Positions 1 through 54,842 are shown, counted from the stretch's first letter. The stretch is 64,000 bases of DNA from Alphaproteobacteria bacterium (GCA_015062345.1 SUUV01000003.1:15572-79571); one strand, 5' to 3'. The notes: generated from the sequence alone by a model not told the origin. Made by a program: numbers and translations.

Positions 1-1391
1 CTTAGAAAATCTAAAAATTTAGTGTATTTGGTGGTTAAGTATCTTTGAGAAACAGCCTGCGCTCCCCAGTGAAAAAACAACACATCGTTATTATTTTGAT
101 ATTTTAAGAGCATAACATTATCAATTTTTTTCATTAATGATGCAATCTCTTTATTTTCGGGAAACATATCAGTATATATGGCAACAGCTAAATAGCTTTC
201 ACCATCATATAACGGATTTGTATTTTCACTTTCGGGATTCAATCGGAAACCTTTATTATCCATAAAATTGTGTTTAAGTGTGCTTACAAGTTTTTCTCTT
301 AATTCTTGATATTGTTTAACATCTGTTTGTTTTTCATAAAATAAAACAGTTAACAAGCCCAAACTTACCGCACCTATCTTTCTTTGAGATAATTCGTCTG
401 CAATGTAATATTGGTTATCACTACCTTTTAATAAGTTTTGTTCGGTCCTGTCTAATATTTTTTTTATTAATAAAAGAAGGTCTTTGTCTTTTGTTTTATA
501 TGCAATGTACGCAAGCGTATAAGCAGAACCCATTTCCCTTACATTGCGATTTTGAGCATTTTCCAGGCCCGGTGAGAGAAAGTCTATTTCATATTGTATG
601 CGCCCATCTTCATTGATTAAATTTTTAAATGCCTTAATACCATCGTCGATATGTTTGTAATGTTTTTGTTTTTTATTTTTATCTTCTTGTATGATTTGCA
701 TGTCAATAAATTCAACCATAAATTTGTTCGGTGTTATAGGTATATCAATTTTTCCTTTTCTTTTTAGTTGTTTTAAAAAACGCTTAGAAGTAGGATATTT
801 TGACCAAACACTGCTTAAAAAAAATGCTTGTTGTTTACCGTTTTTAGATTTTATTCTGACTGCATATTTAAACGGTTCCAGTTTTGCTGTAAGTTGTTCT
901 TCATTTTTAAAATTTATTTTTTGATAAGAACCTAAAAGAGAAATACTGATTTCAAAATCTTCTGAATTAAAATCTTCTTTTGTTATACCCGAAAATCTGT
1001 TATCAGAAAATCCGGCATCATAAGCAGCTTGTGAAAGAGTTTCAATAAACGGTTTATTCGTTCTGATATTTCCTTTACACCCGAGAAGTTTTCCTCCTTT
1101 TTCTAATGTTACAAACACACCTGTCGGACTGTATGACGAAATTTTATAATCTTCGGCCTTAGGAACAACATAGCCCTTACCCTCAAGAGCCAACCGTAAA
1201 GTATCTTTCACTAAACGAAACATCTCTTGTTTTTGAAGTTCTAAACCATTTGTTTCAGAAGTATTATTTTTCTCAAATTTTTGTGCATCAGGGACATTAT
1301 TACAAAAATAAACACCTCCGATAACAGTTAACAGCAACGAACAAAATAACATCAATGATTTTATTGAAAATATTTTACGATAATTTTTCAT
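1..1391 (-). CDS. AMMECR1-domain protein with a long C-terminal extension. Partial: the gene runs off the window start.
   Basis: Minus-strand ORF open to position 1, with ATG at 1391. My own translation gives MKNYRKIFSIKSLMLF... with the motif GVFVTLEKGGKLLGCKGNI typical of the AMMECR1 core. It is absent from the ORF track because there is no stop inside the window. Confidence 0.55.
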   Translation of the reverse strand, partial: MKNYRKIFSIKSLMLFCSLLLTVIGGVYFCNNVPDAQKFEKNNTSETNGLELQKQEMFRLVKDTLRLALEGKGYVVPKAEDYKISSYSPTGVFVTLEKGGKLLGCKGNIRTNKPFIETLSQAAYDAGFSDNRFSGITKEDFNSEDFEISISLLGSYQKINFKNEEQLTAKLEPFKYAVRIKSKNGKQQAFFLSSVWSKYPTSKRFLKQLKRKGKIDIPITPNKFMVEFIDMQIIQEDKNKKQKHYKHIDDGIKAFKNLINEDGRIQYEIDFLSPGLENAQNRNVREMGSAYTLAYIAYKTKDKDLLLLIKKILDRTEQNLLKGSDNQYYIADELSQRKIGAVSLGLLTVLFYEKQTDVKQYQELREKLVSTLKHNFMDNKGFRLNPESENTNPLYDGESYLAVAIYTDMFPENKEIASLMKKIDNVMLLKYQNNNDVLFFHWGAQAVSQRYLTTKYTKFLDFL

Positions 1392-1570: not shown

Positions 1571-2920
1571 TCAAAATCTTTTTTGTATACTAAACTCAAT
1601 TAACGATTTTTCATATTCTTTTTGCCATATATTTGAGCTCTTATCAGTGTAAGAATATGTTAAAGTCGGTGCAAAGCCCATAAACGAAATTTTGCGATTA
1701 GACAGTGATATAGAATATCTTTGAGTTGTATCGTGTTCTTTTACTTGTTCAAAATGATAGTCTTTAACCGTCCAGCGCTTGCCTTTATAATCGGTAAACA
1801 CAACCGATGGCTCGGCATATATATGAAAACCGTACGGCAATTCCGCACCAAAACCGAGAGCTAGATTTATTCTATTGTTTGTATATGTTTCATCTTTTGT
1901 TTTTTCATATTCATAACCCGTCTTAAATATGAAATATTTTGAAGAATCTAAAGCATAAAACAAACGCAATCTGGCGCTTTTTACATTGCCGTCCAAAATA
2001 TCCGAATAGTCATCATAATATGTCGGCGTATAGTTTAAGGTTAGGTTTGCGTTTAGCTTTTTTGTTACATCATAATTTGTTTCAAACATAAAACCGGTTG
2101 AATAGTTATAAGATTTATGGGCAAGGTATCTCTTAGATATTGTTGGTCCAAAGAAAAAATCTCCTTTGTTATGAATATATCTTGCGCCTATTGTATAGTA
2201 TAGGTATGTATCGTCATATTTTTTATCGTCATATTTTGAATTATAAACCATAAATTCGTTCTTTAAACGCCATTTATCGGTGAGCTTAAATTCATAATCC
2301 CCGCCGAAAGTGATGTTTAAGCCGACATCTTTTTTAGGTTCGTCTAAGGTATTGCAAACAATGCCAAATATTGTCATAACACATTGTTCGCCCGATGCCG
2401 TATTGTTTACATTGTTATCGGGAGCAATTCCCATATTAAACCACAAATTCCAATTTTTGTTTTTTCTGATATAATATAAAGCATATTTTATTCTGTGTTG
2501 CACCTCTTTTGGGGTGTCTTTGTGTGATAAGGCCAATCTGTAATGATATTCGGCTCGCATCCAGTCTTTTTGTTTTAGGTACAGTTCTGCCAATCTATAC
2601 CTGATATTTGCAATATCGGGTTGATAATCTAAGATAAAATGGTAAATATCTATCGCTTCTTGAGGTTTGTTTTCCAGTGTGGCAATTTGTGCTAAAAGAT
2701 ATAAACGCTCAATTTCAAGTTTTTTATCATTATACGGTTTAGCAAGCAAAGCCTTTCTTGCATCTTCAAATTTGCCCTGATTTATTAAATCGGTAGCAAA
2801 AGATAATAATTGTTTATGCGTCAAGGCAATTGCGGTTGGTTGTTCCTCAACCGCATTTAACGGCATAGCTTGGGCGGTTGTAACGCCCAAGCTAATTAAC
2901 ACAATCAGTCCATACAGCAT
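1571..2920 (-). CDS. Outer-membrane protein with N-terminal TPR repeats and a C-terminal beta-barrel, Slam/DUF560-like.
   Basis: Signal peptide MLYGLIVLISLGVTTAQA. TPR-like helices in residues ~30-170. C-terminal half is rich in alternating aromatic residues and ends in F, as beta-barrels do. It directly abuts the upstream lipoprotein gene. Confidence 0.5.
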   Translation of the reverse strand: MLYGLIVLISLGVTTAQAMPLNAVEEQPTAIALTHKQLLSFATDLINQGKFEDARKALLAKPYNDKKLEIERLYLLAQIATLENKPQEAIDIYHFILDYQPDIANIRYRLAELYLKQKDWMRAEYHYRLALSHKDTPKEVQHRIKYALYYIRKNKNWNLWFNMGIAPDNNVNNTASGEQCVMTIFGIVCNTLDEPKKDVGLNITFGGDYEFKLTDKWRLKNEFMVYNSKYDDKKYDDTYLYYTIGARYIHNKGDFFFGPTISKRYLAHKSYNYSTGFMFETNYDVTKKLNANLTLNYTPTYYDDYSDILDGNVKSARLRLFYALDSSKYFIFKTGYEYEKTKDETYTNNRINLALGFGAELPYGFHIYAEPSVVFTDYKGKRWTVKDYHFEQVKEHDTTQRYSISLSNRKISFMGFAPTLTYSYTDKSSNIWQKEYEKSLIEFSIQKRF

Positions 2921-4354
2921 TTATTTACGAACACCGCCAAATGCCATTTCTGCATCTATATAGGTGCTTGTTCCGTCGAGCTCTTCTCTGGTTTCTCCAA
3001 AACAAGCAGAACCTACAACTTCATCAGGTTTTTTCAAGTTTTCACCATAATATTTAATGTCAGCCGTTCCGTTTATTTCATCTGTAAACGCAAAATCAGC
3101 ATCTTTTGGTGTTCCTTCAAATGCAAAAGTATATTCGCCTACATTTGCAGTATCGCTGGCAATGGTAATTTTATGCCAATCCGTAAAGTCGGCCGTAAGA
3201 GTTTCTTTACCGTCTTTAAAGTTCAAATTCATAGAACCGTTAAAGATTTTTTCTTTATCTGGTTTACCAATATTTTCGACATAAACAATGGCTACTGATT
3301 TACCTTCAAAGTTCATTTCGGTATCAACTTGCGGTAAATCTTGTGCGGTAGCTTCCAACCCTTTATAACCGCCATAATATGCCATATATCCTTTTTCGTT
3401 ACCTAGGTTATAATCCACTTTTCCGAAATCGCTGTATTTTAATCCTACGGATTTTCCTAAGCTATCCATTTTAACCGATTGTGGAAGTGACTCTTTATAA
3501 AAACAATTGCCTTGTTCTTCACAAGTGTCTTCATCTAAAAACTCACCTAAATCAGCACTATCTAACCAAGCCAACACTTTTTCTTCTGTTTGAGTATCAT
3601 AACCGCCGTTTTTAACTTTGTTTTTGAATGCTTCTACAATATCTTCTTTGGTAGCATCTTTATCGACAATAATGCTATGACTTGAGTAAAAGTCTCCGTC
3701 TGCATCAGAAATTGCACAGACAAATCCATAGCTGGTATAACCTTTGGTATTTTTATAAACTCCGTTACCGGCATTGGTATATTCAATAACACCGGTCGGA
3801 GAATCGTCATGGTTAATTTTTAACCCTTTAACATTTTGATTTTCATCAACAATAAAAGCATATCCGTCATCTTCAAAAGGTCCGTAAAATTCAACATCAT
3901 TTAAAGACAAATTGCGCTCTGTTCCCAATTTTGCATATACATCTTCGGCTTTTTCTTTAATATCCAAATTTTGAATTTCCGATTTTAATTCATCTAAAGA
4001 CATATCTTTTAATTCTTCAATATCTTCCCCGACCAATGCCAACGACAACAAAATGTCTTCTTTGGTTGCTGTGGAAACATCTTCTTGTACCAAAATTTTT
4101 TCCATATTCTCATATGCTTTGTTAATGTCCTCAGCTGAAGTATCAGATGTAAGCCCAACCAAAGCGGCTGCATCTTCATATGCTGTTGTGCGTTCTTGAG
4201 TGTTATTAACCGCCTTAATGCTTGTACCGACATTCGGTAAGGTTGTATGCGGAATATGACCGTGTCCGCCGCCACCTCCGCCACCACAAGCAGTTAAAGC
4301 CGTTGTAAGCATCAATGTGGTTAAAATAGTTGAAAGTCTCATAGTTCTCTCCAT
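2921..4354 (-). CDS. Lipoprotein with a poly-Gly tether and a C-terminal beta-rich domain; candidate surface-exposed lipoprotein (TbpB/fHbp-like architecture).
   Basis: Lipobox LTAC followed by GGGGGGGHGH. C-terminus reads ...GEYTFAFEGT...AEMAFGGVRK. Adjacent to, and co-oriented with, the Slam-like gene. Confidence 0.5.
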   Translation of the reverse strand: MERTMRLSTILTTLMLTTALTACGGGGGGGHGHIPHTTLPNVGTSIKAVNNTQERTTAYEDAAALVGLTSDTSAEDINKAYENMEKILVQEDVSTATKEDILLSLALVGEDIEELKDMSLDELKSEIQNLDIKEKAEDVYAKLGTERNLSLNDVEFYGPFEDDGYAFIVDENQNVKGLKINHDDSPTGVIEYTNAGNGVYKNTKGYTSYGFVCAISDADGDFYSSHSIIVDKDATKEDIVEAFKNKVKNGGYDTQTEEKVLAWLDSADLGEFLDEDTCEEQGNCFYKESLPQSVKMDSLGKSVGLKYSDFGKVDYNLGNEKGYMAYYGGYKGLEATAQDLPQVDTEMNFEGKSVAIVYVENIGKPDKEKIFNGSMNLNFKDGKETLTADFTDWHKITIASDTANVGEYTFAFEGTPKDADFAFTDEINGTADIKYYGENLKKPDEVVGSACFGETREELDGTSTYIDAEMAFGGVRK

Positions 4355-5069: not shown

Positions 5070-5160
5070 ACATCTATATAAGTGAGCTTACCATAATTTG
5101 AGTAAAAATAAAAATCAAGTGTTTTTTTAAAATACACAGTTCTTATTAGAAAAAATCTTA

Positions 5161-5298
5161 CCTCATTTTTGATTTAAATCCACAAATAGACTCTTTTTAC
5201 TTGCAAAAAAAAAAAACGGTTTATGATGCGTCTTGAAAGGGCATTTTTGCCTTTTGAATGAAAATTAAGTTAAACTATTTTTGTAAAGGATATAAATT
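5161..5298 (+). promoter_or_regulatory. Conserved promoter-leader module (copy B1): TTTGATTTAAAT box, TTGCAA, A12 tract 5215..5226, TATGAT, leader hairpin, RBS.
   Basis: Near-identical to seven other copies in the window. Confidence 0.7.
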
Positions 5299-5763
5299 AT
5301 GAGAAAATATTTTCTTTTATCTGCTGTTGCGCTTTTAACTGCAACCACAGCAAATGCAACCACCGACTATGCTGAAGTAACAGCTAAGGCTACAATTGAG
5401 GTGGCATCAGTATTTAGTTGCAGTGATTTAAATTTTGGTAAAATTGTTGTAAAAAACGGCCATGAAGATACTTATGTTGTTCTCGGTTATGAAGTAGAGT
5501 ATGACAAGGAAAACATCATATCATTTTCAGAATATGAAATGGCAGCTTGTAATAATCTGCTTGAGGTAACAGGCAATGATAGTATTATGCTTGATCATGC
5601 AACTTTACCTGAAACCATTACTTTATCAGGACCAAACGGAAGTAAATTAACAGTATCTGATTATCAAATATTTGATTGGGACTTTGGCGGTAAATTAAAT
5701 ATACCGGCAGGTATTCAAGCTGGCGAATATACAGGTTCATTTACCGTAACTGTAACATACTAA
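5299..5763 (+). CDS. Secreted small protein, MRKYF family paralog 1 (Csu/SCPU-pilin-like).
   Basis: Signal peptide MRKYFLLSAVALLTATTANA. CSDLNFG motif. C-terminal GEYTGSFTVTVTY. Followed by terminator 5774..5803. Confidence 0.8.
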   Translation: MRKYFLLSAVALLTATTANATTDYAEVTAKATIEVASVFSCSDLNFGKIVVKNGHEDTYVVLGYEVEYDKENIISFSEYEMAACNNLLEVTGNDSIMLDHATLPETITLSGPNGSKLTVSDYQIFDWDFGGKLNIPAGIQAGEYTGSFTVTVTY

Positions 5764-10495: not shown

Positions 10496-11134
10496 CTAGT
10501 AATACCACATGATATAAACTCTGCAACTGGAACTAGTCTTTAAGCAACTATTACAAAGGGTGTCTATGTCACTAATTGTCATAGTTTTAAGACATTTTAC
10601 ATTATCCGTGCAGTAAGCATCTCCGTATAAATTACCATTAGATGTTGATATCTGTGTTTGCATATCTCGGCTATCGGTTGTTACATATCCTAGTTGAAAG
10701 GAGTTAGCTTTGGCAACATCAATAAGATTATAGCAAATATCCAGTTCATCGGAAGTAAAACTATAACCTATGCCTGACCTTTTCATTGATGTATTATAGA
10801 ATAACCAGATGTCATTATTAAACATATCTTTCAGAAATGTAGGGTCACGGGCAATTTCAAAACCATCCGGGACAAAGCCGGCTTTATAAAATGTTTCTGT
10901 ATACCAAGCTGTTCCGTTTTCATCAATAGAACCTGCAAAATTGGTTGTTTTTTCCGATTGTTGAATAGCAGTATTTAGGAGCATATTAAAGCTTTGAGCA
11001 TGCGTATTTAGTTTATATTTCATCATCGCTTTAGAATATCCGGCAATAGCACCGACCGATAAAACTCCGATTATGGCCAATACACCAAGCATTTCAACCA
11101 TACTTCTTCCAAGCTCACAAATTTTTCTCATCAA
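10496..11134 (-). CDS. Type IV pilin-like protein, paralog 1.
   Basis: Class III signal peptide MMRKICELG|RSMVEMLGVLAIIGVL with E at +5. C-terminal Cys pairs. Confidence 0.7.
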   Translation of the reverse strand: MMRKICELGRSMVEMLGVLAIIGVLSVGAIAGYSKAMMKYKLNTHAQSFNMLLNTAIQQSEKTTNFAGSIDENGTAWYTETFYKAGFVPDGFEIARDPTFLKDMFNNDIWLFYNTSMKRSGIGYSFTSDELDICYNLIDVAKANSFQLGYVTTDSRDMQTQISTSNGNLYGDAYCTDNVKCLKTMTISDIDTLCNSCLKTSSSCRVYIMWYY

Positions 11135-11215
11135 CTAACTCCATATATTATATTCTGTTCACATTCTAAACCGTTTTTTTTTTTTGCAATTTTAAAGAGT
11201 CTATTGTGGATATTT
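11135..11215 (-). promoter_or_regulatory. Promoter of pilin-like gene 1, with the same TTGCAA-A12-CGGTTTAGAAT core as the MRKYF promoters.
   Basis: Reverse complement reads agactcttt..ttgcaaaaaaaaaaaacggtttagaatg. Confidence 0.6.
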
Positions 11216-11290
11216 AATCATTTTTGAGGTGATAGTCAAATAAATTTATATTTATCATCGCTTAATAACTTTAGTAAGCAATTATTACCG

Positions 11291-11470
11291 AAGTCCGCCT
11301 CCTAACTGTCACTCCGGCACTTGATGCTGAAATCCGCCTCCTCACTGTCACTCCGGCACTTGATGCCGGAGTCCAGGTGGTAATATAGCTTTATTTATTC
11401 CTAGATACCGGTGTCTATTCCAAGCTAAAGCTTGGGCACCGATATGACCGTGATGAGAGAGACACCTCTA
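11291..11470. repeat. Conserved structured element A, copy 1. Its 5' ~40 bp are tandemly duplicated.
   Basis: Shared with 22619..22751 and 53737..53880. Contains nested inverted repeats. Confidence 0.7.
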
Positions 11471-11607
11471 CACCATTTTTGATTTAAATTCTTTATTAGA
11501 CTCTTTTTACTTGCAAAAAAAAAAAACGGTTTATGATGCAATGTGAAAGGTTAATTTTGCACCTTTCAAATGTACTTAAACTTAATTTTTGTAAAGGATT
11601 TAAAATT
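11471..11607 (+). promoter_or_regulatory. Promoter-leader module B2 (A12 tract).
   Basis: Same module as B1. Confidence 0.7.
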
Positions 11608-12075
11608 ATGAGAAAATATTTTCTTTTATCTGCGGTTGCAATGCTCGTTGCAACATCAGCAAACGCAACCACAGACTATGCCGAAGTAACCGCTAAAGCT
11701 ACAATTGAAGTGGCTAATACTTTTACTTGTTCTGATTTAAACTTCGGTACCATCGTCGTTAAACAGAATAATGGTGATTCAAAAGTTATTGCCAATTCTG
11801 TCGTAGGAGTAATTTTTGAAGGAGACATTTTATCTGTTAGCAGTGATGCATCATATTCACAATGTCATGGCTTTGGCGAAACAATGGATCCTGAAGGTAG
11901 CTTTAATACTTCCGTTCCTGATTCTGTACCACTTACAGATGGAACTAATGAATTGGAAGTTAAACCTTCTTTAGATAGTTCGTCCATGGATATTATTGGT
12001 GGTGAATTAGAAATCCCTGCCCATGTTAAAGCAGGTGAATATACAGGTTCATTTACCGTAACTTTCACCTACTAA
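11608..12075 (+). CDS. MRKYF family paralog 2.
   Basis: MRKYFLLSAVAMLVATSANATTDYAEVTAKATIEVANTFTCSDLNFG...GEYTGSFTVTFTY. Start chosen at the conserved MRKYF, not at the ORF-track extension. Confidence 0.8.
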   Translation: MRKYFLLSAVAMLVATSANATTDYAEVTAKATIEVANTFTCSDLNFGTIVVKQNNGDSKVIANSVVGVIFEGDILSVSSDASYSQCHGFGETMDPEGSFNTSVPDSVPLTDGTNELEVKPSLDSSSMDIIGGELEIPAHVKAGEYTGSFTVTFTY

Positions 12076-12090: not shown

Positions 12091-12126
12091 ACTACCCTGA
12101 TTTTTTTAAGTCAGGGTAGTTTTTTA
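12091..12126 (+). terminator. Intrinsic terminator.
   Basis: ctaccctga-N8-tcagggtag followed by a T-run. Confidence 0.65.
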
Positions 12127-15693: not shown

Positions 15694-16296
15694 ATGATTT
15701 ACGGATATGTGCGTGTGAGCAGCGACAAACAAACAACTCAAAACCAAATTTTTGAAATAAATTCTTTTGCAAAAAGTAACAATCTTAAAATTGACAATTG
15801 GATAAACGAAACCATAAGCGGACTGTATGATGTAAAAAAAAGAAAACTCGGTAAGCTCTTAAAAAAAATGAAAAAAGGCGACATTATGATTAGCTCCGAG
15901 CTTTCAAGATTAGGCCGCAATTTATTGCAGGTTATGAGTATTTTATCATATTGTATGGAGCACGAAATTGCTGTTTGGACCATAAAAGATAATTATCGAT
16001 TAAGCATTGATATTCAGTCAAAAATTATGGCTTTTGCGTTCGGATTATCGGCAGAAATTGAACGCAATTTGATTTCTCAGCGAACAAAAGAAGCTTTGGC
16101 TCGCTTAAAAGCCGAAGGTAAAACTTTGGGAAGACCTAAAGGAACATTAAAAGCTCAATATGTTTTAGAGCAAAATAAAGAGCAAATTTTAAATGATATA
16201 AAATCTGATGTACCTTTTATTAAAATCGCCGACAAATTTAATGTTTGTGATAAAACCTTGCGAAGATTTTTAAAAAAAAATAATATTAGCTATTGA
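15694..16296 (+). CDS. Small serine recombinase (resolvase/invertase family).
   Basis: N-terminal YGYVRVSSDKQ catalytic motif. C-terminal HTH. 200 aa. Confidence 0.85.
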   Translation: MIYGYVRVSSDKQTTQNQIFEINSFAKSNNLKIDNWINETISGLYDVKKRKLGKLLKKMKKGDIMISSELSRLGRNLLQVMSILSYCMEHEIAVWTIKDNYRLSIDIQSKIMAFAFGLSAEIERNLISQRTKEALARLKAEGKTLGRPKGTLKAQYVLEQNKEQILNDIKSDVPFIKIADKFNVCDKTLRRFLKKNNISY

Positions 16297-16352
16297 AAAG
16301 CAAATTTTCAACCCTATCTAAAAGTTGTAATTTTTTAACTAAAGATAGGGAT

Positions 16353-17285
16353 ATGACGCAAAATATAAAAATAGCCGTACAATTTTTCGGGCACTTAAGG
16401 ACATTTGAAAAATGTGCCATAAGTATTAAAAAACACATTTTATCAAAATATGACTGTGATGTGTTTATGCATACTTGGTCAGATACTGAGCATTCAACAC
16501 AAACTTGGCACAATATGAAATCTAAGGTGCAAACCGTAAATCAAAAAATGCTTGAAAAAATTGAAAAACAATATCTGCCGAAGATGACCTTGGTTGAAAA
16601 GCAAATTTTGCCCGAAGATGATACCTTAATGGCTTGTATGCATAATAAAAAAGCAAAAATGATTTCGGCAAACGGTATGAAATTTATGCTAAAATCACAA
16701 ATTAAGGTTAATGAACTTCGAAAACAATATGCCAAAAAAAACGGTATAAACTATGACATTGTCTTAATGTTGCGTCCGGATATTTATTTATATTCCGATT
16801 TAGATATAAATAAAATTGTAAAAGAATGTAATGCGGTTATAGATTATCCGGCTCGATTTTGTGTCAGTAACGCCTTAAAAAAGGGAGGGACTTGCGCTTT
16901 TACGAGTGATATGTTAAGTGATGTATTTTATTTGGCAACACCTTCAAGTATGGATTTAATTGTTGATGCATTTAAAAACATAAAATTTGAAAAATTTACC
17001 GAAAAACTGTGGACTCCTGAAAATCTGATTACCAATATCTTATTTAAAAAAGGTATTGCCACATTTGCTTTGTTATATTTTTTTAATCGAGATTTCGAAA
17101 TTATCAGAGGTTCATATTGCGACAAAGAAAAACGAAAAAGATTTATAAGTTTTAAGCTCTCGCATAAAACTTTAAGATTAAACATATTTGGTTTTATGGC
17201 AAAAAGCTTTGTTTCGATGGACTTTCATATATTTAACTTGTTTAATATAGATTTTTCAATAGGAAAACCTCATGCAAAATGCTGA
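16353..17285 (+). CDS. Hypothetical protein, possibly polysaccharide-related.
   Basis: ORF. ATG at MTQNIK lies downstream of a hairpin at 16308..16350; the track start at 16293 is a TTG extension. Confidence 0.5.
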   Translation: MTQNIKIAVQFFGHLRTFEKCAISIKKHILSKYDCDVFMHTWSDTEHSTQTWHNMKSKVQTVNQKMLEKIEKQYLPKMTLVEKQILPEDDTLMACMHNKKAKMISANGMKFMLKSQIKVNELRKQYAKKNGINYDIVLMLRPDIYLYSDLDINKIVKECNAVIDYPARFCVSNALKKGGTCAFTSDMLSDVFYLATPSSMDLIVDAFKNIKFEKFTEKLWTPENLITNILFKKGIATFALLYFFNRDFEIIRGSYCDKEKRKRFISFKLSHKTLRLNIFGFMAKSFVSMDFHIFNLFNIDFSIGKPHAKC

Positions 17286-18129
17286 ATTTATAAAACCCTT
17301 AACCGGACATTCCGGTTGCGGTTTAAATTTATATAAAAAGGACGATAAACTTTTTTTAAGAAAAGATTCAGGCGATTGTTCATACAACCGGCGCTTAAAA
17401 AAACAATATATTAAGCAAAACAAATTTTTCCTAAACGGTATAAGAACTCCGAAAATTTATAATCACGGACATGAAAACGGCTTATTTTACTTTGATATGG
17501 AGTTTTTAAACGGTATAACCTTGGCAGAATATATGTCCAATATCAAAATTAAGGAAATAAACTCGCTTATAGGCTTATTGTTTAAATCTTTACCGGTTGA
17601 AAGTTCTAAAATTTTACCTGATACCGATGCTGTTTTTAAGAAAAAAATCAGGCAAATCAAAACCAAACTGCGCCCAAGTGACAGCCAAGCCTTAATTGCA
17701 GTTGATATGCTCGAAAATTTTGATTTTTCTATGGTTCCGTTTAGCTATTGTTGCGGTGATTTGACCTTAGAAAACATTATGCTTGATGATAACAAACAAA
17801 TTTATTTAATTGATTTTCTTGATTCTTTTTATAACTCTTGGATGATTGATGTGGCAAAACTTTTGCAAGACTTAGAGCTTCATTGGTCTTATAGAAATCA
17901 GGAAGTTGACTTTAATTTATCCATGCGTTTGGCAGTGGCAAAAGAAGCCTTGTTGGAAAATATTGCCGAATATGAAAATGCAAAAGAAAACATCTGCACC
18001 ATTTATCACATTTTACTGTTAAACATTTTGCGCATAATTCCTTATGCCAAAGACGATAAAACGCATTTATTTTTAAAAAATGCTTTAAATAAAATTATAC
18101 AAACCATCAAACAAACGGAGAAAAATTGA
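17272..18129 (+). CDS. Protein-kinase-like phosphotransferase (choline kinase / APH family).
   Basis: Brenner/catalytic-loop-like GDLTLENIML and IDFLDS motifs. Confidence 0.6.
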   Translation: MQNAEFIKPLTGHSGCGLNLYKKDDKLFLRKDSGDCSYNRRLKKQYIKQNKFFLNGIRTPKIYNHGHENGLFYFDMEFLNGITLAEYMSNIKIKEINSLIGLLFKSLPVESSKILPDTDAVFKKKIRQIKTKLRPSDSQALIAVDMLENFDFSMVPFSYCCGDLTLENIMLDDNKQIYLIDFLDSFYNSWMIDVAKLLQDLELHWSYRNQEVDFNLSMRLAVAKEALLENIAEYENAKENICTIYHILLLNILRIIPYAKDDKTHLFLKNALNKIIQTIKQTEKN

Positions 18130-18130
18130 T

Positions 18131-19186
18131 ATGTGTACTCTTATAATTCCCTGTGCCGGAAAATCGAGCCGTTTTCCGAATATGAAACCCAAATGGATGC
18201 TAACTCACCCTGACGGCAAACTTATGATTGAAAAATCTTTGGAAGGTATAAATTTTGATAATTTCAAACGCATCATTATCACCATTGTCAAACCGCATGA
18301 TGAAAAATATGATGCCAAACTTATTTTGGAACAAGTTTTTCGGCATAATAAAAAAATTGAAATTTGTGTTTTGGAAGATTTTACGCAAAGTGCAAGCCAG
18401 ACCATATATTTAACCATACAAAAAATGAACATTCAAGGCGCTTTTGTGATTAAAGATTCGGATAACAAGGTTTTGTTTGATATGCCTCAAAAAATAAAAA
18501 ATGCAATTGTCGGGTTTGATTTAGCCAAGCATCCGGACATTGCCAACATTCCGGCAAAAAGTTTTTTGATTGTAAATGAACAAAACATTATTCAGGACAT
18601 TATCGAAAAACAAGTTGTGTCAAAGTGCATTTGTCTTGGTGTTTATATGTTTGAAAGGGCGTTCGATTTTATACAAGCTTATGAAGAATTAAGCCAAAAA
18701 AATGTCAAAGGAGAAATGTTTGTCAGCCACATAATTTCTTATATGCTAACTTGTGGCAACACCATATTTACGGCCATTATGGCTAACTTTTTTGAAGATT
18801 GGGGCACATTATCCGAGTGGCACAAAGTTCAAAAAAAGCATCGCACATATTTTGTTGATGTTGATGGCGTCATACTTAAAAATTCGGGCAAATACGGCAT
18901 TGTAAATTGGAGCAACAATAAAACGGTTTTAGAAGAAAATATCAAAAGCTTACTTGAGTTGCAAGAAAACGGTGCTCAAATTGTGATTACCACATCAAGA
19001 ACGGAAGAATATAGGGAAGATTTGATAAATATATTGCATCAAAACAAAATTTTTCCGTATGCGATTTTAATGGGTCTAAATCATGCGGCAAGAGTTGTTA
19101 TAAACGATTTTGCTCCGACTAATCCGTATCCGTCGGGCATAGCTGTCAGTTTGCCGAGAAATACTAATATTAAAGATTATTTATAA
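18131..19186 (+). CDS. Fusion of a nucleotidyltransferase (MobA/LicC-like) and a HAD-like phosphatase domain.
   Basis: N-terminal LIIPCAGKSSRF. C-terminal FVDVDGVI (HAD motif I). Confidence 0.6.
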   Translation: MCTLIIPCAGKSSRFPNMKPKWMLTHPDGKLMIEKSLEGINFDNFKRIIITIVKPHDEKYDAKLILEQVFRHNKKIEICVLEDFTQSASQTIYLTIQKMNIQGAFVIKDSDNKVLFDMPQKIKNAIVGFDLAKHPDIANIPAKSFLIVNEQNIIQDIIEKQVVSKCICLGVYMFERAFDFIQAYEELSQKNVKGEMFVSHIISYMLTCGNTIFTAIMANFFEDWGTLSEWHKVQKKHRTYFVDVDGVILKNSGKYGIVNWSNNKTVLEENIKSLLELQENGAQIVITTSRTEEYREDLINILHQNKIFPYAILMGLNHAARVVINDFAPTNPYPSGIAVSLPRNTNIKDYL

Positions 19187-19197
19187 AGGAGAGAATT

Positions 19198-20205
19198 ATG
19201 AACATATTAATTACCGGAGGAGCCGGATTTATCGGTTCCGAGCTGGGAAAATTTTTAGTTGCGCAAGGCCACAATGTTAAAATTTTGGACAACTTGGAAT
19301 ATGGCTATAAAGACAATTTTGAAGATAACCAAACCTTAAAGAATAACTTCATATTTGCCGATATCAGAGATACCGATTTTGCAAAACACTTAAAAAACAT
19401 TGACATATTGTATCACTTTGCCGGTATATCGGCTTTGCCAGAGTGCGAATCAGAGCCTTACAAGGCCTTTGATGTTAATACCTCAGGTGTGGCAAATGTG
19501 TTAAATGCGTGCAGAAATTCTGATGTGAAAAAAATTATTTTTGCTTCAACATCTGCCGTGTATGAAAACAATTGTGCAACGGAACATCACAAAGAAACCG
19601 ACATTGTGTGTCCTAACCTTATTTATGCCACCTCAAAATATTGCGCCGAGCAAATTTGCAAATCGTATGCTCAAAATTATGATATGGACATCATCATTTG
19701 CCGATTTTTTAATGTATTCGGCCCACATCAAGACTTTAGGCGCAAATATCCGCCGTTTACAAGCTATATTATCAAAATGGCTTTAAGCAATGAAACACCT
19801 ACAATTTTTAATTGTGAAGATTGTAAACGAGATTATATCTACATTGATGATTTGTTGCAATATCTGTATCAAATGGCAACAAGCTCAAAAAAATATTCTG
19901 CCGAAATATTTAATTTGGCTACTTCAAATGCGTACAGCGCCATTGAAATTGCGCAAACGGTGTATGATATATTAAACAAAGAATTTGCCTTTAATGTTGG
20001 CGATGCCGAAAAGTTTTGGGATAAATATGACAATTTGTTTAACCAAAAATATAATTTAAGCCGGTTGAGGGTAAAACAAGAGGTTTTTAAGCATTGCTTG
20101 GGAAACGGGCAAAAAGTAGCAAAAGAATTTAATTATAGTCCTAAAACTAACTTAAAAGAAGGTTTGCGCAAAATTATTGAATATCAAAAAAATTATAAAG
20201 GGTAA
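19198..20205 (+). CDS. NAD-dependent sugar epimerase/dehydratase.
   Basis: ILITGGAGFIGSEL Rossmann motif and YxxxK. Confidence 0.8.
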   Translation: MNILITGGAGFIGSELGKFLVAQGHNVKILDNLEYGYKDNFEDNQTLKNNFIFADIRDTDFAKHLKNIDILYHFAGISALPECESEPYKAFDVNTSGVANVLNACRNSDVKKIIFASTSAVYENNCATEHHKETDIVCPNLIYATSKYCAEQICKSYAQNYDMDIIICRFFNVFGPHQDFRRKYPPFTSYIIKMALSNETPTIFNCEDCKRDYIYIDDLLQYLYQMATSSKKYSAEIFNLATSNAYSAIEIAQTVYDILNKEFAFNVGDAEKFWDKYDNLFNQKYNLSRLRVKQEVFKHCLGNGQKVAKEFNYSPKTNLKEGLRKIIEYQKNYKG

Positions 20206-20208
20206 GGC

Positions 20209-21304
20209 TATGTCAAAAATCAGTTCAAAAGATGTATCAGTTGTTGTTCAGGGTAAAAATGTGCATAAACATACAGCCAAATGCTTAAAAAGTTTGCGAG
20301 AACATTTTCCTTATGCCGAAATTATATTTTCAACTTATGATGATGAAGATGTGTTTGGCCTTGATTTTGATATCTTGGTACAATCTGCTGACCCGAATGC
20401 AACTTTATTAAGCGGTAAAATGTACAACAACATTAATCGCATATTGACCACTACCAGAGCCGGACTTGAAAAAGTCAGCCGAAAATATTGTTTGAAGATT
20501 CGCTCAGATTTGATGTTTGATAACGATAAAATTTTATCCGATATCGCTTCACAATTTCCGTTAAGAGATAAACAATACAGCATATTTAAGGAGCGAGTTT
20601 TATTTTATTGTTTATGGAGCCGAAAATTTGAATATATCGACCATAAATATTACATACAGACACCGTTTCACTTAAGCGATTGGCTTTGTTTCGGTTTAAG
20701 CGAAGATATAAAAAACTTTTTTAGCGATATTCCCTTAACCGATGAGCCTGAATATTCACACTATTTTAAAAACTCCGAAAACAGAGCACAATATATGTTT
20801 GAGCCTAATGTAACTTGGAAATTCCCGCCGGAACAATATTTTACAACCACCTTTTTCGGCCGTTTTTTTGAGCAAGCCAATATGAAATCGTTGCAAGATG
20901 TAACAGCAAAAAAAGTTGAGCTTTCAAGGAGAATTTTTGCTTCAAATGTGGTGGTTTGCGGATATAAAGAATGTGGAGCATATATTCAAAAAGATGATTA
21001 CAAATATGTATCAAAAAACATAAATTGGCTCAAAGGTGTTTGGCTTAGCGGTGTTTATCGTTATGCCGATTTTCTGTCCGATTATAAAAAATATTGCGAT
21101 GAAAATTTTGAAATTCCAAATATTTATTTATGGGCATTAAACCAGCAAATTGATAGTGATGCCGTTAAACTGAGTAAACATTATAAAACTTTTATGCAAC
21201 CGATAAGAGTGGTTCTAAAATGGTTAGAACAGTTTTTTGCTATTGTTTTTTATGCCGTAAAAATAGGTTTTGCTACAATAAAACTATATTTTGGCGGTAA
21301 ATAG
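20209..21304 (+). CDS. Hypothetical protein, WavE-like LPS biosynthesis family (tentative).
   Basis: ORF of 365 aa. Weak recollection of the WavE family only. Confidence 0.4.
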
Positions 21305-21362: not shown

Positions 21363-21860
21363 TTATTCACTTACCATGGTAAATGTAAAGGCACCTTTAT
21401 AAACACCGGTTATTAATTCAGAAGAACCGGATATATGAAGTTTGCCGGTAAGGACATTATCAAAAGCACCGCCTAATGCAATATCCGTTAAATATATACC
21501 ATAACCAGTATTATCTGTATGAGCCAGGTCAACAGAATCTGGTGCATACAATGTATAATTTTCAATATTCATATCGGCTCCGATTGAACATTCTGCAGAA
21601 GTATTTCCTATAGCAGATACAAAATATTCTGTTCCTTCAACAGCGGTAATGTTACCGAAACCGTCATCTTGTACGGTTACATCATGTGAGATGTCTGTTA
21701 GATAAATTTTACCCCAATTCCACACAGAACATGATGCTTTGGTTGCCAAAGCAAGCTCTGCCTGAACCTCAACATTGAAACCTTCTGTATAACCTGTTCC
21801 GGCATTCACATTTGTTGCAACCATCAAAGCCACCGCTGATATTAGAAAATATTTTCTCAT
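21363..21860 (-). CDS. MRKYF family paralog 3 (two-Cys subfamily).
   Basis: MRKYFLISAVALMVATNVNA...CSVWNWG...GVYKGAFTFTMVSE. Confidence 0.8.
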   Translation of the reverse strand: MRKYFLISAVALMVATNVNAGTGYTEGFNVEVQAELALATKASCSVWNWGKIYLTDISHDVTVQDDGFGNITAVEGTEYFVSAIGNTSAECSIGADMNIENYTLYAPDSVDLAHTDNTGYGIYLTDIALGGAFDNVLTGKLHISGSSELITGVYKGAFTFTMVSE

Positions 21861-22003
21861 TTTTAAAATTCCTTTACAAAAATTAAGTTTAAGTACATTT
21901 GAAAGGTCAAAAAATCACCTTTCACATCGCATCATAAACCGTTTTTTTTTTTTGCAAGTAAAAAGAGTCGTTTAAAAGATTTAAATCAAAAATGAGGTGT
22001 TTT
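21861..22003 (-). promoter_or_regulatory. Promoter-leader module B3 (T12 on the plus strand).
   Basis: Reverse complement matches the B consensus. Confidence 0.7.
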
Positions 22004-22228
22004 TATGCTTGCAAAATTTTAGAAAATATTTAATATAAACATTGTCGCCAAACGGCGATGGTGTTCCAAAAACATCTTTACAGTAAAACTCCTTGTCAGG
22101 GGGAGTGGGGGATATAAGGCTTTATGCTCGAATAACCCTGACTGGACTGTAACAGTTTTTGGGCTCCCCGCTTTGATTTTTTCTCAAGGCGGTTTTTTGT
22201 TAACTTAAAAAAAACAGGAGCTAAAAAT

Positions 22229-22522
22229 ATGGAAAAAACTAAACCAACCGAAAATTTTGAAAAAGAATATTCACAAAATTTAAGTATCAGAAGAAATTAT
22301 CGCAAAAAATTAATCCAAAGTGTGGCAAGACAAATCTGCCGTATCAGTATTGAAGAAAAAATAAGCTTGGAAAAGCTGGCCGAAATGTCAAATGTGTCCG
22401 AGCTGACACTCAAACGATGGCTTATCGGCAAAGGCGAAATGCATCTGGACAGTTTATGTAAAATCTGTTTGAGGTTTAATAAAAGGCTTATTATCAGTAT
22501 TAAAGATATTCAGGATTTGTAA
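22229..22522 (+). CDS. XRE-family HTH transcriptional regulator.
   Basis: ISLEKLAEMSNVSELTLKRWLIGKG HTH. Confidence 0.6.
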   Translation: MEKTKPTENFEKEYSQNLSIRRNYRKKLIQSVARQICRISIEEKISLEKLAEMSNVSELTLKRWLIGKGEMHLDSLCKICLRFNKRLIISIKDIQDL

Positions 22523-22618
22523 CCCCTTTTTTTAAGAGTATAACGAGCAAAATCAAAAGCTTTCAGATTAATAATAATCGGAAAATATTTATTTTTTATC
22601 CTCATACTTTGCAACATA

Positions 22619-22751
22619 CCTCCTAACTGTCACTCCGGCACTTGATGCCGGAGTCCAGGTGGTAATATAGCTAAATTATTCCCTGGATACCGGTGTCTAT
22701 TCCGAACTAAAGTTCGGGCACCGGTATGAAGGTGATGAGAGAGACACTTCT
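22619..22751. repeat. Structured element A, copy 2.
   Basis: Carries compensatory changes in stem H3 relative to A1/A3. Confidence 0.7.
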
Positions 22752-22888
22752 ACCTCATTTTTGATTTAAATTCACATTTAGACTCTTTTTACTTGCAAAA
22801 AAAAAAAACGGTTTATGATGCGATGTGAAAGGTAAATTTTTGCCTTTCAAGTACATTTAAACTTGAATTTTTGTAAAGGATACAAATT
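22752..22888 (+). promoter_or_regulatory. Promoter-leader module B4 (A12).
   Basis: Consensus module. Confidence 0.7.
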
Positions 22889-23377
22889 ATGAGAAAATAT
22901 TTTCTTTTAAGCGCAGTTGCACTTTTAGCAAACATAACTGCCACATCAGTAAGTGCCGGAACCAATACATCAGCTAATGTAAATGTTGTAGCTTCAATTA
23001 ATCATGTGAATGAAATTAATTGTTCTGTATGGAATTTTGGCAATATATTTGTTAAATCTAATCAAGAAGATGGAAGTACCATTTTTTCAGTTATAGCAGA
23101 TTATGAACTTAATGCATCTTCCGTTGATGCTATTGTAAGCTCTTATGGATACGAACCTGCAAGATGTAATTTTGGAAATTTTAATCAAGAAAATTATACT
23201 TTTTACTTTCCTGAAAAAGTTACACTTACAAGTACAGATGGTGGAGAAATATATTTAACCGATTTGAGTTTTGACTCATTTGACATTATTGCAGGAACAT
23301 TGTCTTATGATTCTACGAATGCTTCATATGACGGAAATTATACTGGCTCATTTATTTTTACTTTGCTATCTGAATAA
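22889..23377 (+). CDS. MRKYF family paralog 4 (two-Cys subfamily).
   Basis: MRKYFLLSAVALLANITA...CSVWNFG...GNYTGSFIFTLLSE. Confidence 0.8.
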   Translation: MRKYFLLSAVALLANITATSVSAGTNTSANVNVVASINHVNEINCSVWNFGNIFVKSNQEDGSTIFSVIADYELNASSVDAIVSSYGYEPARCNFGNFNQENYTFYFPEKVTLTSTDGGEIYLTDLSFDSFDIIAGTLSYDSTNASYDGNYTGSFIFTLLSE

Positions 23378-30068: not shown

Positions 30069-31295
30069 TTATCCTCGTTCTCGTTGCCCTCTGGTATAGG
30101 CAAGTTCGGCCATATCCACAGATTTGCTTTTGGCAATTTGTTCTTTTTTGCGTCTGATATATTCTTCTTTTTCGCGTCTGATTTGCTGTTCAAGTGCCTT
30201 GTTTTCAGAAAAATCAGCATCTCTTGAAACCTTATTTTCCAAAACCTCTCGCTTGCGCTGTTCAATAATTTTTCTAACCTCGGCATTGTGTTCTTTAGCA
30301 ATTTCTTCTTGCTTTTCATCGTTGTCTTTATGGAATTTTTCCAAAATTTCTTCATCTTTTAACTCTGGCTTTTGGATAACGGCTCGATATATTTGTTTAC
30401 CCATCGTCAAAAGATCTTTAATTGTAATTCCGGGGTGTTTAGTTAAATCAAGTACGCCGAAATTTCCACCGCTTCTGAAAAATGCGGAAAAATCAATCAT
30501 AAACCGACGAACGGCTTTTCTGTTTTTAGGTGCCAATATCTTTTTTAATTCCAGAGGTGTGGGCATTCTTCCCAAGGCTTGGGCTATTTGTTCGGGTGTG
30601 ATGATACATTCGCTTAAATCCCACTCAAAAATATTAACTCCGGTAAAATCAACTCCGGTAAAATCAACTCCTCGCAAATTTACCTGACTTAAATCAAGTC
30701 TGGTAAAATCAAGCATAGTTAAATTCATACGAGCCAGATTTAACTTATGCGGATAGTAAATTGCCAAATATTCCACCAAGGCTTGCAATTCTTCAATGGC
30801 AAGTTCGTCCATTTTTACATCAAGCAAAATTGCATCTTGAATGTCGGCATTAACAAGTGTTACACCGCACAAATTAGCTCCGGTAAAATTGGTACCGATT
30901 AATTTTGCATTTGTAAACACTGCTCCGTCAAGATTTGCACCCGATAAATCGGCTCCAGACAAATCAGCCGCCGTAAAATCTGCTCCACGCAAATCAGCAT
31001 TTTTAAAATCAACTTCTTTTAAATCAGCAGATGAAAAATTGGCATCTTTAAATTGCTCACCGGCATATTTTCCGCCACGAAGAACTTTACCGCTAAAATT
31101 AAAACCGGAATCAAATGTATCTAACGGATGATAAGAGGTGCGCTTGTCGGTGACACTCGAAACAGATTGCCAAGAAAAATTGTTGCGAAAAAGTTTTTCG
31201 ACACTTTGGTCTTGCTCACCTTTTCTGGCATCTTTTACCTTATCACGCATACTGCCGATATTAAAACTCTTTTTATTATTGTCCAACATCGTCAA
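30069..31295 (-). CDS. Pentapeptide-repeat protein with a charged coiled-coil tail.
   Basis: Tandem A(D/N)LxG repeats (ADLRGADFTAADLSGADLSGANL...). Confidence 0.8.
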   Translation of the reverse strand: MTMLDNNKKSFNIGSMRDKVKDARKGEQDQSVEKLFRNNFSWQSVSSVTDKRTSYHPLDTFDSGFNFSGKVLRGGKYAGEQFKDANFSSADLKEVDFKNADLRGADFTAADLSGADLSGANLDGAVFTNAKLIGTNFTGANLCGVTLVNADIQDAILLDVKMDELAIEELQALVEYLAIYYPHKLNLARMNLTMLDFTRLDLSQVNLRGVDFTGVDFTGVNIFEWDLSECIITPEQIAQALGRMPTPLELKKILAPKNRKAVRRFMIDFSAFFRSGGNFGVLDLTKHPGITIKDLLTMGKQIYRAVIQKPELKDEEILEKFHKDNDEKQEEIAKEHNAEVRKIIEQRKREVLENKVSRDADFSENKALEQQIRREKEEYIRRKKEQIAKSKSVDMAELAYTRGQRERG

Positions 31296-32690: not shown

Positions 32691-32807
32691 CCACCTCATT
32701 TTTGATTTAAATATCTTTCATAACTCTTTTTACTTGCAAAAAAAACTGTTTACGATGCGTATTGAAAGGTAAATTTTTGCACCTTTTAAAATTAAGTTTA
32801 ACTATTT
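32691..32807 (+). promoter_or_regulatory. Degenerate promoter-leader module B5: A8 tract, -10 mutated to TACGAT, RBS lost.
   Basis: Aligns to the B consensus with decay. Confidence 0.6.
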
Positions 32808-33105
32808 ATGAGAAAATATTTTCTTTTATCAGCCATAGCCCTCTTGGCTGCAACAAATGTTAATGCAACCACAGACTATGCCGAAGTGACTGCTAGGGCT
32901 AAAATTGAAGTAGCAAATACTTTTGAATGTGATGATGTTGATTGGGGAACAATTGTTGTTAAAGCCGAAAATTAAGAACAGTGATAATGTATTATATGCT
33001 ACATTCAATGCCGACAGTGATAATTTGTGGCCTGTATTAAATATCCCTGCCAATGTTGAACCTGGTGAATACGAGGGCGTGACTACAGTAGTAGTAACTT
33101 ACTAA
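32808..33105 (+). pseudogene. MRKYF family pseudogene: internal deletion plus frameshift.
   Basis: MRKYFLLSAIALLAATNVNATTDYAEVTARAKIEVANTFEC... then a stop at ~32974. The conserved C-terminal ...GEYEGVTTVVVTY continues in another frame (32923..33105). Total length is ~100 codons against ~160 in intact copies. Confidence 0.75.
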
Positions 33106-33166
33106 ATCCATAAAACTCAACACCCCTTAGCCATACGGTTAAGGGGTGTATTTTTAGGTTGAGCAA

Positions 33167-53013: not shown

Positions 53014-53577
53014 CTACCAATACACATCTATCGTACACCAACCTTCGCCGCAAGCAGCTGTGCAAGCGTTACTTATTTGTGACATATTTATATTGGTCAT
53101 ATCTTCCGGAGAAAACAGCTCTATACTATACGGACTATCTATTCTAATGAGCCCATAAGAATGTAAGTGCTTATATATACCGCTTGTAAAAAAGGCATTA
53201 CACATATCAACAGCAAAGTCATTTGTAGGGTGTATAATAAAATATGTGGAACCATTTGTGCTACTCTCAAATTGATAACCACCAATAGGAAGTTTGCACT
53301 TATGACCATTATAATGCTCATCAAAATATAAATCACAGTCAAGACCTATTTTAGGTGCGTCTTCAACATCTATGTCACCCGTTAAGGAACCGGATACTTG
53401 TAATTCAGTCAATTTTGCAAAAGCACCTGATACAATATCTAATGTTGTGTTTATTTTATGTTTTAGCATGGCTTTTGAGTAACCGGCAATGCCACCAACA
53501 GATAACACACCGATAATAGCCAAAACACCGAGCATTTCTACCATACTTCTTCCAAGTTCACAAACTTTTCTCATCAA
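53014..53577 (-). CDS. Type IV pilin-like protein, paralog 2.
   Basis: The N-terminal 40 aa are nearly identical to paralog 1 (MMRKVCELGRSMVEMLGVLAIIGVLSVGGIAGYSKAM). The C-terminus is divergent and Cys-rich. Confidence 0.7.
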   Translation of the reverse strand: MMRKVCELGRSMVEMLGVLAIIGVLSVGGIAGYSKAMLKHKINTTLDIVSGAFAKLTELQVSGSLTGDIDVEDAPKIGLDCDLYFDEHYNGHKCKLPIGGYQFESSTNGSTYFIIHPTNDFAVDMCNAFFTSGIYKHLHSYGLIRIDSPYSIELFSPEDMTNINMSQISNACTAACGEGWCTIDVYW

Positions 53578-53660
53578 CTTACTCCTTTAAAACATATTTT
53601 GAGCTCAGCATAAACCGTTTTTTTTTTTTGCAATTTATACGAGTCTTCTTTGTGGATAAT
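53578..53660 (-). promoter_or_regulatory. Promoter of pilin-like gene 2 (TTGCAA-A12-CGGTTTATGCT).
   Basis: Reverse complement matches the shared core. Confidence 0.6.
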
Positions 53661-53736
53661 TAGTCATCTTTGAGGTAATAGCCAAACAAATTTATATTTA
53701 TCACCTCTTAATAACTTTAGTAAGCAATTATTACCG

Positions 53737-54841: not shown

Positions 54842-54842
54842 T

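Follow-up and report, generated by a model that had tools for sequence, protein, structure and literature searches.

Why should genes for two unrelated kinds of protein share the DNA that lies between them? The question is raised by two loci in a 64,000-nucleotide stretch from an Alphaproteobacteria bacterium (GCA_015062345.1 SUUV01000003.1:15572-79571). We call this whole stretch the window and count all positions from its first letter. At each locus, a minus-strand gene for a type-IV-pilin-like protein and a plus-strand gene of the MRKYF family diverge from a conserved intergenic region (about 470 bp at the first locus, 11135-11607). A first-pass annotation had described the loci as modules of this common architecture, which open reading frame (ORF) maps and the sequence confirmed at both sites:

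10496-11131, minus strand: pilin-like A (module 1), 211 amino acids; leader MRKICELG, then RSMVE, a hydrophobic alpha-1 helix and a Cys-rich globular domain
11608-12075, plus strand: MRKYF2 (module 1), 155 amino acids; signal peptide, N-terminal strand TTDYAEVTAKATIEVA, variable middle and C-terminus GEYTGSFTVTFTY
53014-53574, minus strand: pilin-like B (module 2), 186 amino acids; N-terminal 43 residues as in A (38/43 identical), a different middle and a C-terminal Cys motif shared with A
54017-54505, plus strand: MRKYF5 (module 2), 162 amino acids, DUF4402-like

The explanation we favor is that a dispersed promoter cassette probably co-regulates subunit-like genes of two unrelated pilus types, which form a large repertoire that evolves fast, and that the two modules are the cassette's bidirectional form. 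Each surface-filament subunit gene would carry its own cassette of about 75 nt and be monocistronic, and two cassettes placed head to head, with GC-rich hairpins between them, would make a pilin/MRKYF module. A common sigma factor or activator that recognizes the shared boxes would then transcribe the whole set coordinately. Diversity would come from the many paralogues and from replacement, between strains, of the gene behind the cassette, and not from rapid switching. Co-regulation is what we infer from promoter identity alone, and promoter activity is likewise a prediction.

We compared the two modules by pairwise alignment of each segment. The intergenic regions are 84% identical with a single 39-nt indel, so their description as nearly identical was overstated; they are nonetheless far better conserved than the coding DNA on either side. 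For the two promoter arms identity is 86% and 90%, and for the AT-rich central spacer 92%, against 43% for the DNA of the pilin C-terminal domains and 45% for that of the mature MRKYF proteins, both at the level of unrelated sequence. The MRKYF2 and MRKYF5 proteins, which had been called strongly diverged, are indeed only 30% identical. The first 43 pilin codons are 83% identical and differ at 16 synonymous positions, so the intergenic non-coding DNA is better conserved than nearby synonymous sites.

The region had also been read as one bidirectional control region. Repeat finding and pattern searches instead resolved it into two inverted copies of the cassette with two GC-rich hairpin elements between them. 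The parts of the two modules are as follows:

11163-11230, minus strand: putative pilin A promoter cassette, a sequence reading in register with 46 unique copies (below); inverted repeat I14 with 11480-11538. Parts on the plus strand: -10 TAGAAT 11163-11168; T12/A12 11174-11185; 15-nt spacer; -35 TTGCAA 11184-11189; AGACTC 11197-11202; ACCTCA 11225-11230
11231-11296: AT-rich central spacer of module 1
11297-11374, plus strand: GC-rich hairpin element 1, direct repeat D17 (4 matches in the window, 0 expected); degenerate copy near 11297-11335, intact stem-loop CACTCCGGCA-CTTGA-TGCCGGAGT at 11349-11373
11404-11446, plus strand: GC-rich hairpin element 2, ATACCGGTG..CCAAGC-TAAA-GCTTGG..CACCGATAT
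11470-11537, plus strand: putative MRKYF2 promoter cassette; boundary ACACCA 11470-11475; GATTTAAAT 11481-11489; AGACTC 11498-11503; -35 TTGCAA 11511-11516; A12 11515-11526; -10 TATGAT 11532-11537; 15-nt spacer
11538-11607, plus strand: MRKYF2 5' leader, with an 8-bp hairpin at 11544-11568 (single-sequence fold) and the Shine-Dalgarno sequence AAAGGA
12091-12120, plus strand: terminator-like hairpin and T-run 3' of MRKYF2
53607-53676, minus strand: putative pilin B promoter cassette; on the plus strand, -10 TATGCT 53607-53612; T12 53618-53629; -35 53628-53633; ACCTCA 53671-53676
53677-53879, plus strand: central spacer and hairpin elements of module 2; element 1 stem-loop 53756-53780, element 2 53816-53852
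53880-53946, plus strand: putative MRKYF5 promoter cassette; ACCTCA 53880-53885; -35 53921-53926; A11 53925-53935; -10 TATGAT 53941-53946; 14-nt spacer

In outline, the order within a cassette is ACCTCA..GATTTAAAT..AGACTC..TTGCAA, A12 within a 15-nt spacer, and then TAnnnT. Read in the direction of the gene, it begins with (C/T)ACCTCA-ww-TTTGATTTAAAT, followed by about 9 variable nt, AGACTC, 7-8 nt and the -35-like hexamer TTGCAA. Ten positions of the 15-nt spacer belong to A12; CGGTT comes next, and then the TAnnnT -10 box, which is TATGAT in MRKYF genes and TAGAAT or TATGCT in pilin genes. The upstream boundary box (ACCTCAwwTTTGATTTAAAT) contains a near-palindrome centered at about -60, with the AGACTC box at about -45. 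The DNA 5' of ACCTCA is unrelated from copy to copy, and the cassette therefore has a sharp 5' boundary. Pilin and MRKYF arms have ACCTCA, AGACTC, TTGCAA, A12, CGGTTTA and the TAnnnT -10 box in common, in identical register and with the same 15-nt spacing. The inverted promoters of a module lie 260-300 nt apart, each with its own A12 tract.

Forty-six unique copies of the cassette, from the window and related loci, align base for base from ACCTCA to the -10 box. The 23-nt promoter core has nine matches in the window at up to three mismatches, where 0.02 would be expected, which excludes chance. Conservation peaks at the promoter-like boxes, which stand in fixed register to the start codon, and is far above that of the adjacent coding DNA (~45%). 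This is the pattern expected from purifying selection on regulatory sequence.

The two modules are thus not a simple duplication, as first described, but two instances of a cassette dispersed across the genome. The window holds ten copies: six with an intact MRKYF gene, two with pilin-like genes, one with an MRKYF pseudogene and one orphan. Those outside the two modules are:

5160-5763, plus strand: cassette (A12 5205-5216) and MRKYF1 (5299-5763)
21363-21999, minus strand: MRKYF3 (21363-21860) and its cassette (T12 21942-21953), the left half of a third divergent module
22619-23377, plus strand: hairpin elements 1 and 2 (22619-22740), cassette (A12 22797-22808) and MRKYF4 (22889-23377), the right half of the third module
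32692-33106, plus strand: decayed copy with A8, an 11-nt spacer and the -10 box changed to TACGAT, before an MRKYF pseudogene (32808-33106) with a frameshift and an internal deletion
55336-55460, plus strand: orphan cassette with A9 and an altered -10 box, the gene behind it absent
56541-57150, plus strand: cassette (A12 56587-56598) and MRKYF6 (56680-57150)

The third divergent module (21363-23377) pairs MRKYF3 with MRKYF4, and its right half, hairpins and cassette together, is 90% identical to 11337-11558 (repeat D6). Outside the window, the exact 23-nt core occurs at at least 26 sites in at least 22 loci of RGIG4267, a metagenome-assembled genome (MAG) from roe deer colon with ~94% DNA identity to the window at dnaA. 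Among the matches listed there is also one site in a human-gut MAG. Head-to-head pairs recur in RGIG4267, both pilin/MRKYF and pilin/pilin, with GC hairpins between them. The context upstream of the orphan cassette at 55336 is found again at two loci of this sister genome (L019, L021), where an intact MRKYF gene follows. Downstream of the 46 unique copies are thirty-four MRKYF genes, six pilin-like genes (as classified by script) and six others. These six are made up of run-offs, decayed copies, a pilin variant with a leader insertion, and an unrelated protein that is small and Cys-rich. In a human-gut alphaproteobacterial MAG (L007, 7585-7900, plus strand), a cassette-like promoter (AGACTC..TTGCAA, A11, 16-nt spacer, TATCAT) precedes the gene for an unrelated protein of 113 residues, Cys-rich and secreted-looking, so this type of promoter is not confined to the two families.

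The source genome, a MAG identified by the locus tag prefix E7016_, belongs to an uncultured gut or rumen alphaproteobacterium. Its tags reach ~7865 in steps of 5, which suggests about 1,600 genes, and at least 24 MRKYF paralogues carry them, along with several further pilin-like paralogues. The cassette units are monocistronic (MRKYF2 by virtue of the terminator that follows it) and are sited among housekeeping genes, including rpoD, DUF1847, asd-like, dnaA, RNase HII, transhydrogenase and polysaccharide genes.

Within the window, the hairpin elements are found solely upstream of three MRKYF cassettes. We considered whether they might be widely dispersed miniature inverted-repeat transposable elements (MITEs) and rejected this for the window on the basis of that distribution. 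Element 1 is tandemly duplicated in module 1 (D17) and single in module 2, which accounts for the 39-nt indel between the intergenic regions. The inner stem of element 2 exists as two fully compensated alleles, CCAAGC/GCTTGG and CCGAAC/GTTCGG, and the structured block of module 2 (elements 1 and 2) has a DNA fold of -30.1 kcal/mol (z = -6.0 against shuffled sequences). No known RNA family was found for the conserved center: the intergenic region gave only a chance-level speF match in Rfam (E 0.23), and the sole match at the gathering threshold across the whole window was a tRNA. The leader of the MRKYF genes is about 70 nt long and conserved. In a consensus fold over 25 copies, all 8 pairs of its hairpin are retained, with G-U changes and one compensated pair. 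Ahead of the pilin genes the leader is short and contains GGAG.

The pilin-like proteins belong to a very large family. For pilin A there are more than 7900 homologues, all lacking a Pfam domain, and the segment GRSMVEMLGVLAIIGVLSVG is almost invariant among them; pilin B matched 4305 representatives of clusters at 50% identity, mostly through its N-terminal ~50 residues alone. The leader MRKICELG is short and basic with Gly at -1. This residue (G8) is at least 90% conserved in 39 homologues and aligned to the Gly of the geopilin leader, and E13, at position +5, is invariant in the homologues and is followed by a hydrophobic helix. In a profile search of PDB sequences, E13 aligned with E5 of mature TcpA (at a weak E-value, 0.055) and G8 with the geopilin leader Gly (E-values also weak). 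On these alignments, processing would therefore give Gly-1, Arg+1 and Glu+5. The G-1/E+5 processing site of the first-pass annotation is thus present, in register with TcpA. Modeled at pLDDT 87, pilin A shows a helix spanning residues 10-58 together with an alpha/beta domain. Structurally it comes closest to major type IVb pilins, matched over ~155 residues, which gives this predicted structure a pilin fold.

Pilins A and B had been thought alike in the N-terminus only. BLASTP indeed found nothing beyond the 38 of 43 N-terminal residues, and the full-length profile comparison was driven by the N-terminus; profile comparison added a 27-residue Cys-rich C-terminal motif. With the N-terminus removed this tail motif was all that aligned, and we rejected homology throughout the C-terminal domains. 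The products would thus be type IVb-pilin-like, with a class-III-type N-terminus that does not vary, a globular middle that does and a common Cys-rich tail. They differ in several ways from the major type IVb pilins CofA, TcpA and PilS, which have long leaders, while the family here has an 8-residue leader and Arg+1. It also lacks an adjacent assembly operon, comprises thousands of clusters with differing globular parts and falls below the Pfam and TIGRFAM pilin thresholds. Pilin A found no match among plasmid records, and an exact-protein look-up returned one short contig lacking upstream DNA. In some pilin-like genes, MRK.CELGR and GRSMVEM are separated by 40-60 inserted in-frame codons, flanked by repeated GR, which give a long leader. 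The insertion sites are at L004 (~1150-1340, minus strand) and L012 (5290-5430, plus strand), in proteins P0002, P0003 and P0016, and the inserted DNA is strongly self-complementary.

The MRKYF proteins appear related to DUF4402 (PF14352). Two of the six in the window pass the Pfam cut-off (39.2 and 40.7 bits against 25.2) and MRKYF5 falls just below it (22.5), and the six can be aligned, together with annotated DUF4402 proteins, as a single family. Behind a signal peptide the family is conserved at the mature N-terminus (TTDYAEVTAKATIEVA), at two cysteines and at the C-terminus (L.IPA.V.AGEYTGSFTVT.TY), with a hypervariable middle. Its AlphaFold2 model (pLDDT 84.5) is all-beta with residues 1-39 unfolded. 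It is a predicted beta-sandwich whose top structural matches, with modest scores, are chaperone-usher subunits. The unfolded N-terminal strand has alternating hydrophobic residues and the C-terminal strand is conserved. In these features the family may resemble the subunits Caf1, PapA and FimA. A further link comes from a Novosphingobium plasmid, where a DUF4402 gene forms an operon with a PapD_N chaperone gene (34.3 bits against 23), followed by a gene for a 920-residue protein with no Usher match. Unlike those of chaperone-usher systems, the MRKYF genes stand as orphans in monocistronic units; a small genome has at least 24 such paralogues, and neither chaperone nor usher was found in the window. 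A search of PDB sequences with the family profile found no match, and literature searches on DUF4402, on RF32 with pili and on CAG-239 returned nothing relevant. The MRKYF products would thus be DUF4402 proteins of a predicted chaperone-usher-subunit-like fold, with conserved N- and C-terminal strands around a hypervariable middle. Both families have conserved ends of the assembly type and a variable exposed middle. The proposal that two structurally unrelated types of surface-filament subunit stand behind one promoter type is supported by the identical register of the boxes and by the predicted folds.

Several results weigh against our interpretation. A scan for the sigma-70 consensus missed the cassette: at 15 nt the spacer is below the 16-18 nt that the scan needs, and it is short for a promoter of the sigma-70 type. 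Inspection by eye of sigma-54, sigma-28, sigma-32 and extracytoplasmic function (ECF) patterns found no convincing fit. The pilins do not reach the models for pilin N-termini (PF07963, 13 bits against a cut-off of 21.2; TIGR02532, 10.3 against 16.3). Their position +1 is an Arg, at least 90% conserved, and not a hydrophobic residue that could be N-methylated (Phe, Met, Leu or Val). Taken singly, three of the window's six MRKYF proteins have no Pfam match. A search of the window for a prepilin peptidase, a pilus ATPase, a secretin, a PapD-like chaperone or an usher found none of them. The neighborhoods of homologues on long contigs yielded no assembly genes of the type IV pilus, type II secretion or chaperone-usher kind, and a motif search for assembly genes in 337 kb of related DNA found none. 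It is conceivable, then, that the products are not filament subunits at all, the pilin-like proteins being membrane-anchored or similar to type II secretion pseudopilins and the DUF4402 proteins being secreted or periplasmic beta-sandwiches with no dedicated assembly system. The absence of assembly genes from the DNA examined, the atypical Arg+1 and a weak GspH match (18.6 bits) would all fit. We nevertheless consider this very improbable: in structure the best matches are major type IVb pilins, over ~155 residues, the pilin-like N-terminus stays invariant over thousands of clusters, in line with a polymerization helix, the MRKYF strands may resemble those of donor-strand-exchange subunits, and DUF4402 is linked to a chaperone in Novosphingobium. 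Because pilus assembly genes were found neither in the window nor in the related DNA, the appendage proposed in the first-pass annotation stands as a structural reading; surface location and filament assembly are what we infer from the predicted folds.

The A tract suggests another explanation, in which slippage at A12 would switch each subunit gene on or off independently and generate combinatorial antigenic variation from contingency promoters. The tract lies exactly between the -35 and -10 boxes, filling 10 of the 15 spacer positions in the two modules, and the window has no homopolymer of 10 nt or longer outside the cassettes. Paralogues have tracts of A8, A9, A10, A11, A12 and A14, and the decayed cassettes bear short ones. 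Scans of metagenome contigs with a variable-gap pattern and with the exact 23-mer gave no match, so we assessed tract polymorphism at the same locus across public assemblies through exact-protein look-ups. Length changed in one of 40 locus-by-assembly observations at eight loci, a count drawn from consensus assemblies of samples partly from the same projects, so that low-frequency switching within a population could escape it. The change was at the MRKYF1 locus, which has A11 in L037 and A12 in seven others (the window and six assemblies), with identical flanks in three of the A12 sequences; we did not take it to establish polymorphism at the locus. Two C-to-A substitutions lengthen the run and leave the spacing unchanged, two A11 loci are A11 in both assemblies of each (the A11 of MRKYF5 is also seen in L033), the pilin B tract is A12 in all four assemblies, and a copy from a distant genome (L025) keeps the 15-nt spacing with A10 and 7 other bases. 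The spacing appears to be selected. Frequent switching is therefore not supported, and despite the precedent of the vlp genes discussed below we regard independent switching as unlikely. Selection might act instead on the cassette and hairpins as a substrate for recombination, or as a selfish mobile promoter or MITE, with the 5' cassettes and 3' coding ends anchoring gene swaps. The sharp ACCTCA boundary points this way, as do the compensated stems and tandem duplication of the hairpin elements. So does turnover between strains: the DNA upstream of MRKYF1 differs among strains that encode the identical protein, and the slot between dnaA and an MNT/HEPN gene pair holds pilin B, the bidirectional region and MRKYF5 in the window and a single cassette with a different MRKYF gene in RGIG4267, with flanks 94-97% identical. 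Public metagenome contigs also often end in or just upstream of the cassette (L037, L038, L041, L043, L050, L051, L055-L059, L064, L070), in keeping with assembly breaks at a repeated sequence. Yet when MRKYF paralogues are compared at the cassette core, identity is 87% inside the window, 90% inside RGIG4267 and 88% from one genome to the other, and there is therefore no sign of recent or genome-specific homogenization. Conservation is highest at the promoter-like boxes in their fixed register, no flanking transposase or terminal repeats were found at the units, and the window's hairpins stand solely before MRKYF cassettes. As the main cause of the conservation, recombination or mobility thus seems improbable; as a role compatible with promoter function, and not an alternative to it, it is partly supported. 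The dispersed promoter cassette remains our preferred reading, and that the repertoire varies between close relatives, as first proposed, is observed.

Comparable arrangements are known from other bacteria. In Haemophilus influenzae the divergent fimbrial genes hifA and hifB share one overlapping promoter region with a single TA repeat, and Neisseria porA and opc have a repeat tract in the promoter spacer of genes for surface structures. The cassette resembles these in its repeat tract between the -35 and -10 boxes of putative surface genes, and hif also in being divergent. It differs from hif in having two separate inverted promoters, 260-300 nt apart and each with its own A12, and evidence of length switching was not found. 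Closer still, in the summary of Citti & Wise 1995 given in PMC10502178, the vlp genes of Mycoplasma hyorhinis are single-gene units encoding variable surface proteins, each with a conserved 5' region (promoter and signal peptide) and a poly(A) tract in the promoter. Here too there are many single-gene units for putative surface proteins, each with its own conserved 5' cassette and promoter poly(A) tract. Relative to the vlp genes as summarized there, the tract is nearly invariant (1/40), the products are pilus-subunit-like and not lipoproteins, the organism is a Gram-negative gut alphaproteobacterium, two unrelated families use one cassette, and bidirectional pairs occur.

None of the components is of a new kind: surface multigene families whose 5' cassettes are conserved have been described before, and so have type IV pilins and chaperone-usher subunits. 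In the literature searched we found no description of one cassette serving two families of pilus subunits, of a very large unannotated pilin family with Arg+1, or of either in uncultured gut Alphaproteobacteria. If the products do form surface filaments, a genome of about 1,600 genes with at least 24 DUF4402 and several pilin-like paralogues, all of them behind one type of cassette and exchanged between close relatives, would have in this repertoire its lineage's main interface with host and phage, and would offer an example of how commensals diversify that interface. Three things are now defined well enough for direct testing: the pilin-like family (>7900 matches; 4305 clusters at 50% identity) with its unusual Arg+1, the model-based structural assignment for DUF4402, and a compact putative promoter (boxes, A-tract spacer and leader hairpin) that could be used for regulon prediction in metagenomes. 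A more speculative combination of these ideas, to which we give only a small chance, is that a lineage of uncultured gut Alphaproteobacteria has a surface of mix-and-match orphan subunits of two pilus types (Arg+1 type IVb-like pilins, processed by a non-canonical prepilin peptidase, and chaperone-usher-like DUF4402 proteins). A hypermutable A12 tract and recombination-prone ends would then give slow on/off switching and cassette-mediated replacement, amounting to an undescribed antigenic-variation system of commensals.

The window has further features, some of them beside cassette units. The third intergenic region (22000-22522, plus strand) has a GC-rich, structured-looking stretch at ~22040-22200 with no Rfam match, followed at 22229-22522 (plus strand) by an ORF for a 97-residue XRE-type helix-turn-helix (HTH) protein (HTH_26/HTH_3, ~20 bits, below threshold). 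This ORF is a candidate regulator; another MRKYF locus (L031/L032) has a similar HTH_3 gene, of 91 residues, two genes away. The gene pair that adjoins module 2 (54545-55265, minus strand) encodes an MNT nucleotidyltransferase and a HEPN-like protein (NTase_sub_bind). It is toxin-antitoxin-like and kept in the sister genome. Convergent with MRKYF3 is the end of a block at 15694-21304 (plus strand) in which a serine recombinase (Resolvase, 110 bits) heads genes for sugar or lipopolysaccharide modification (kinase-like, nucleotidyltransferase/HAD, epimerase, WavE), and which may be a mobile or invertible surface-polysaccharide island. At 1571-4354 (minus strand), a gene for a Slam-family outer-membrane protein (PF04575, 139 bits, with tetratricopeptide repeats) lies directly downstream of one for a 477-residue protein with no Pfam match, which may be a Slam-dependent surface lipoprotein. 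Last, a gene at 30069-31295 (minus strand) with 15-nt tandem units in it (D14) encodes a 408-residue pentapeptide-repeat protein.

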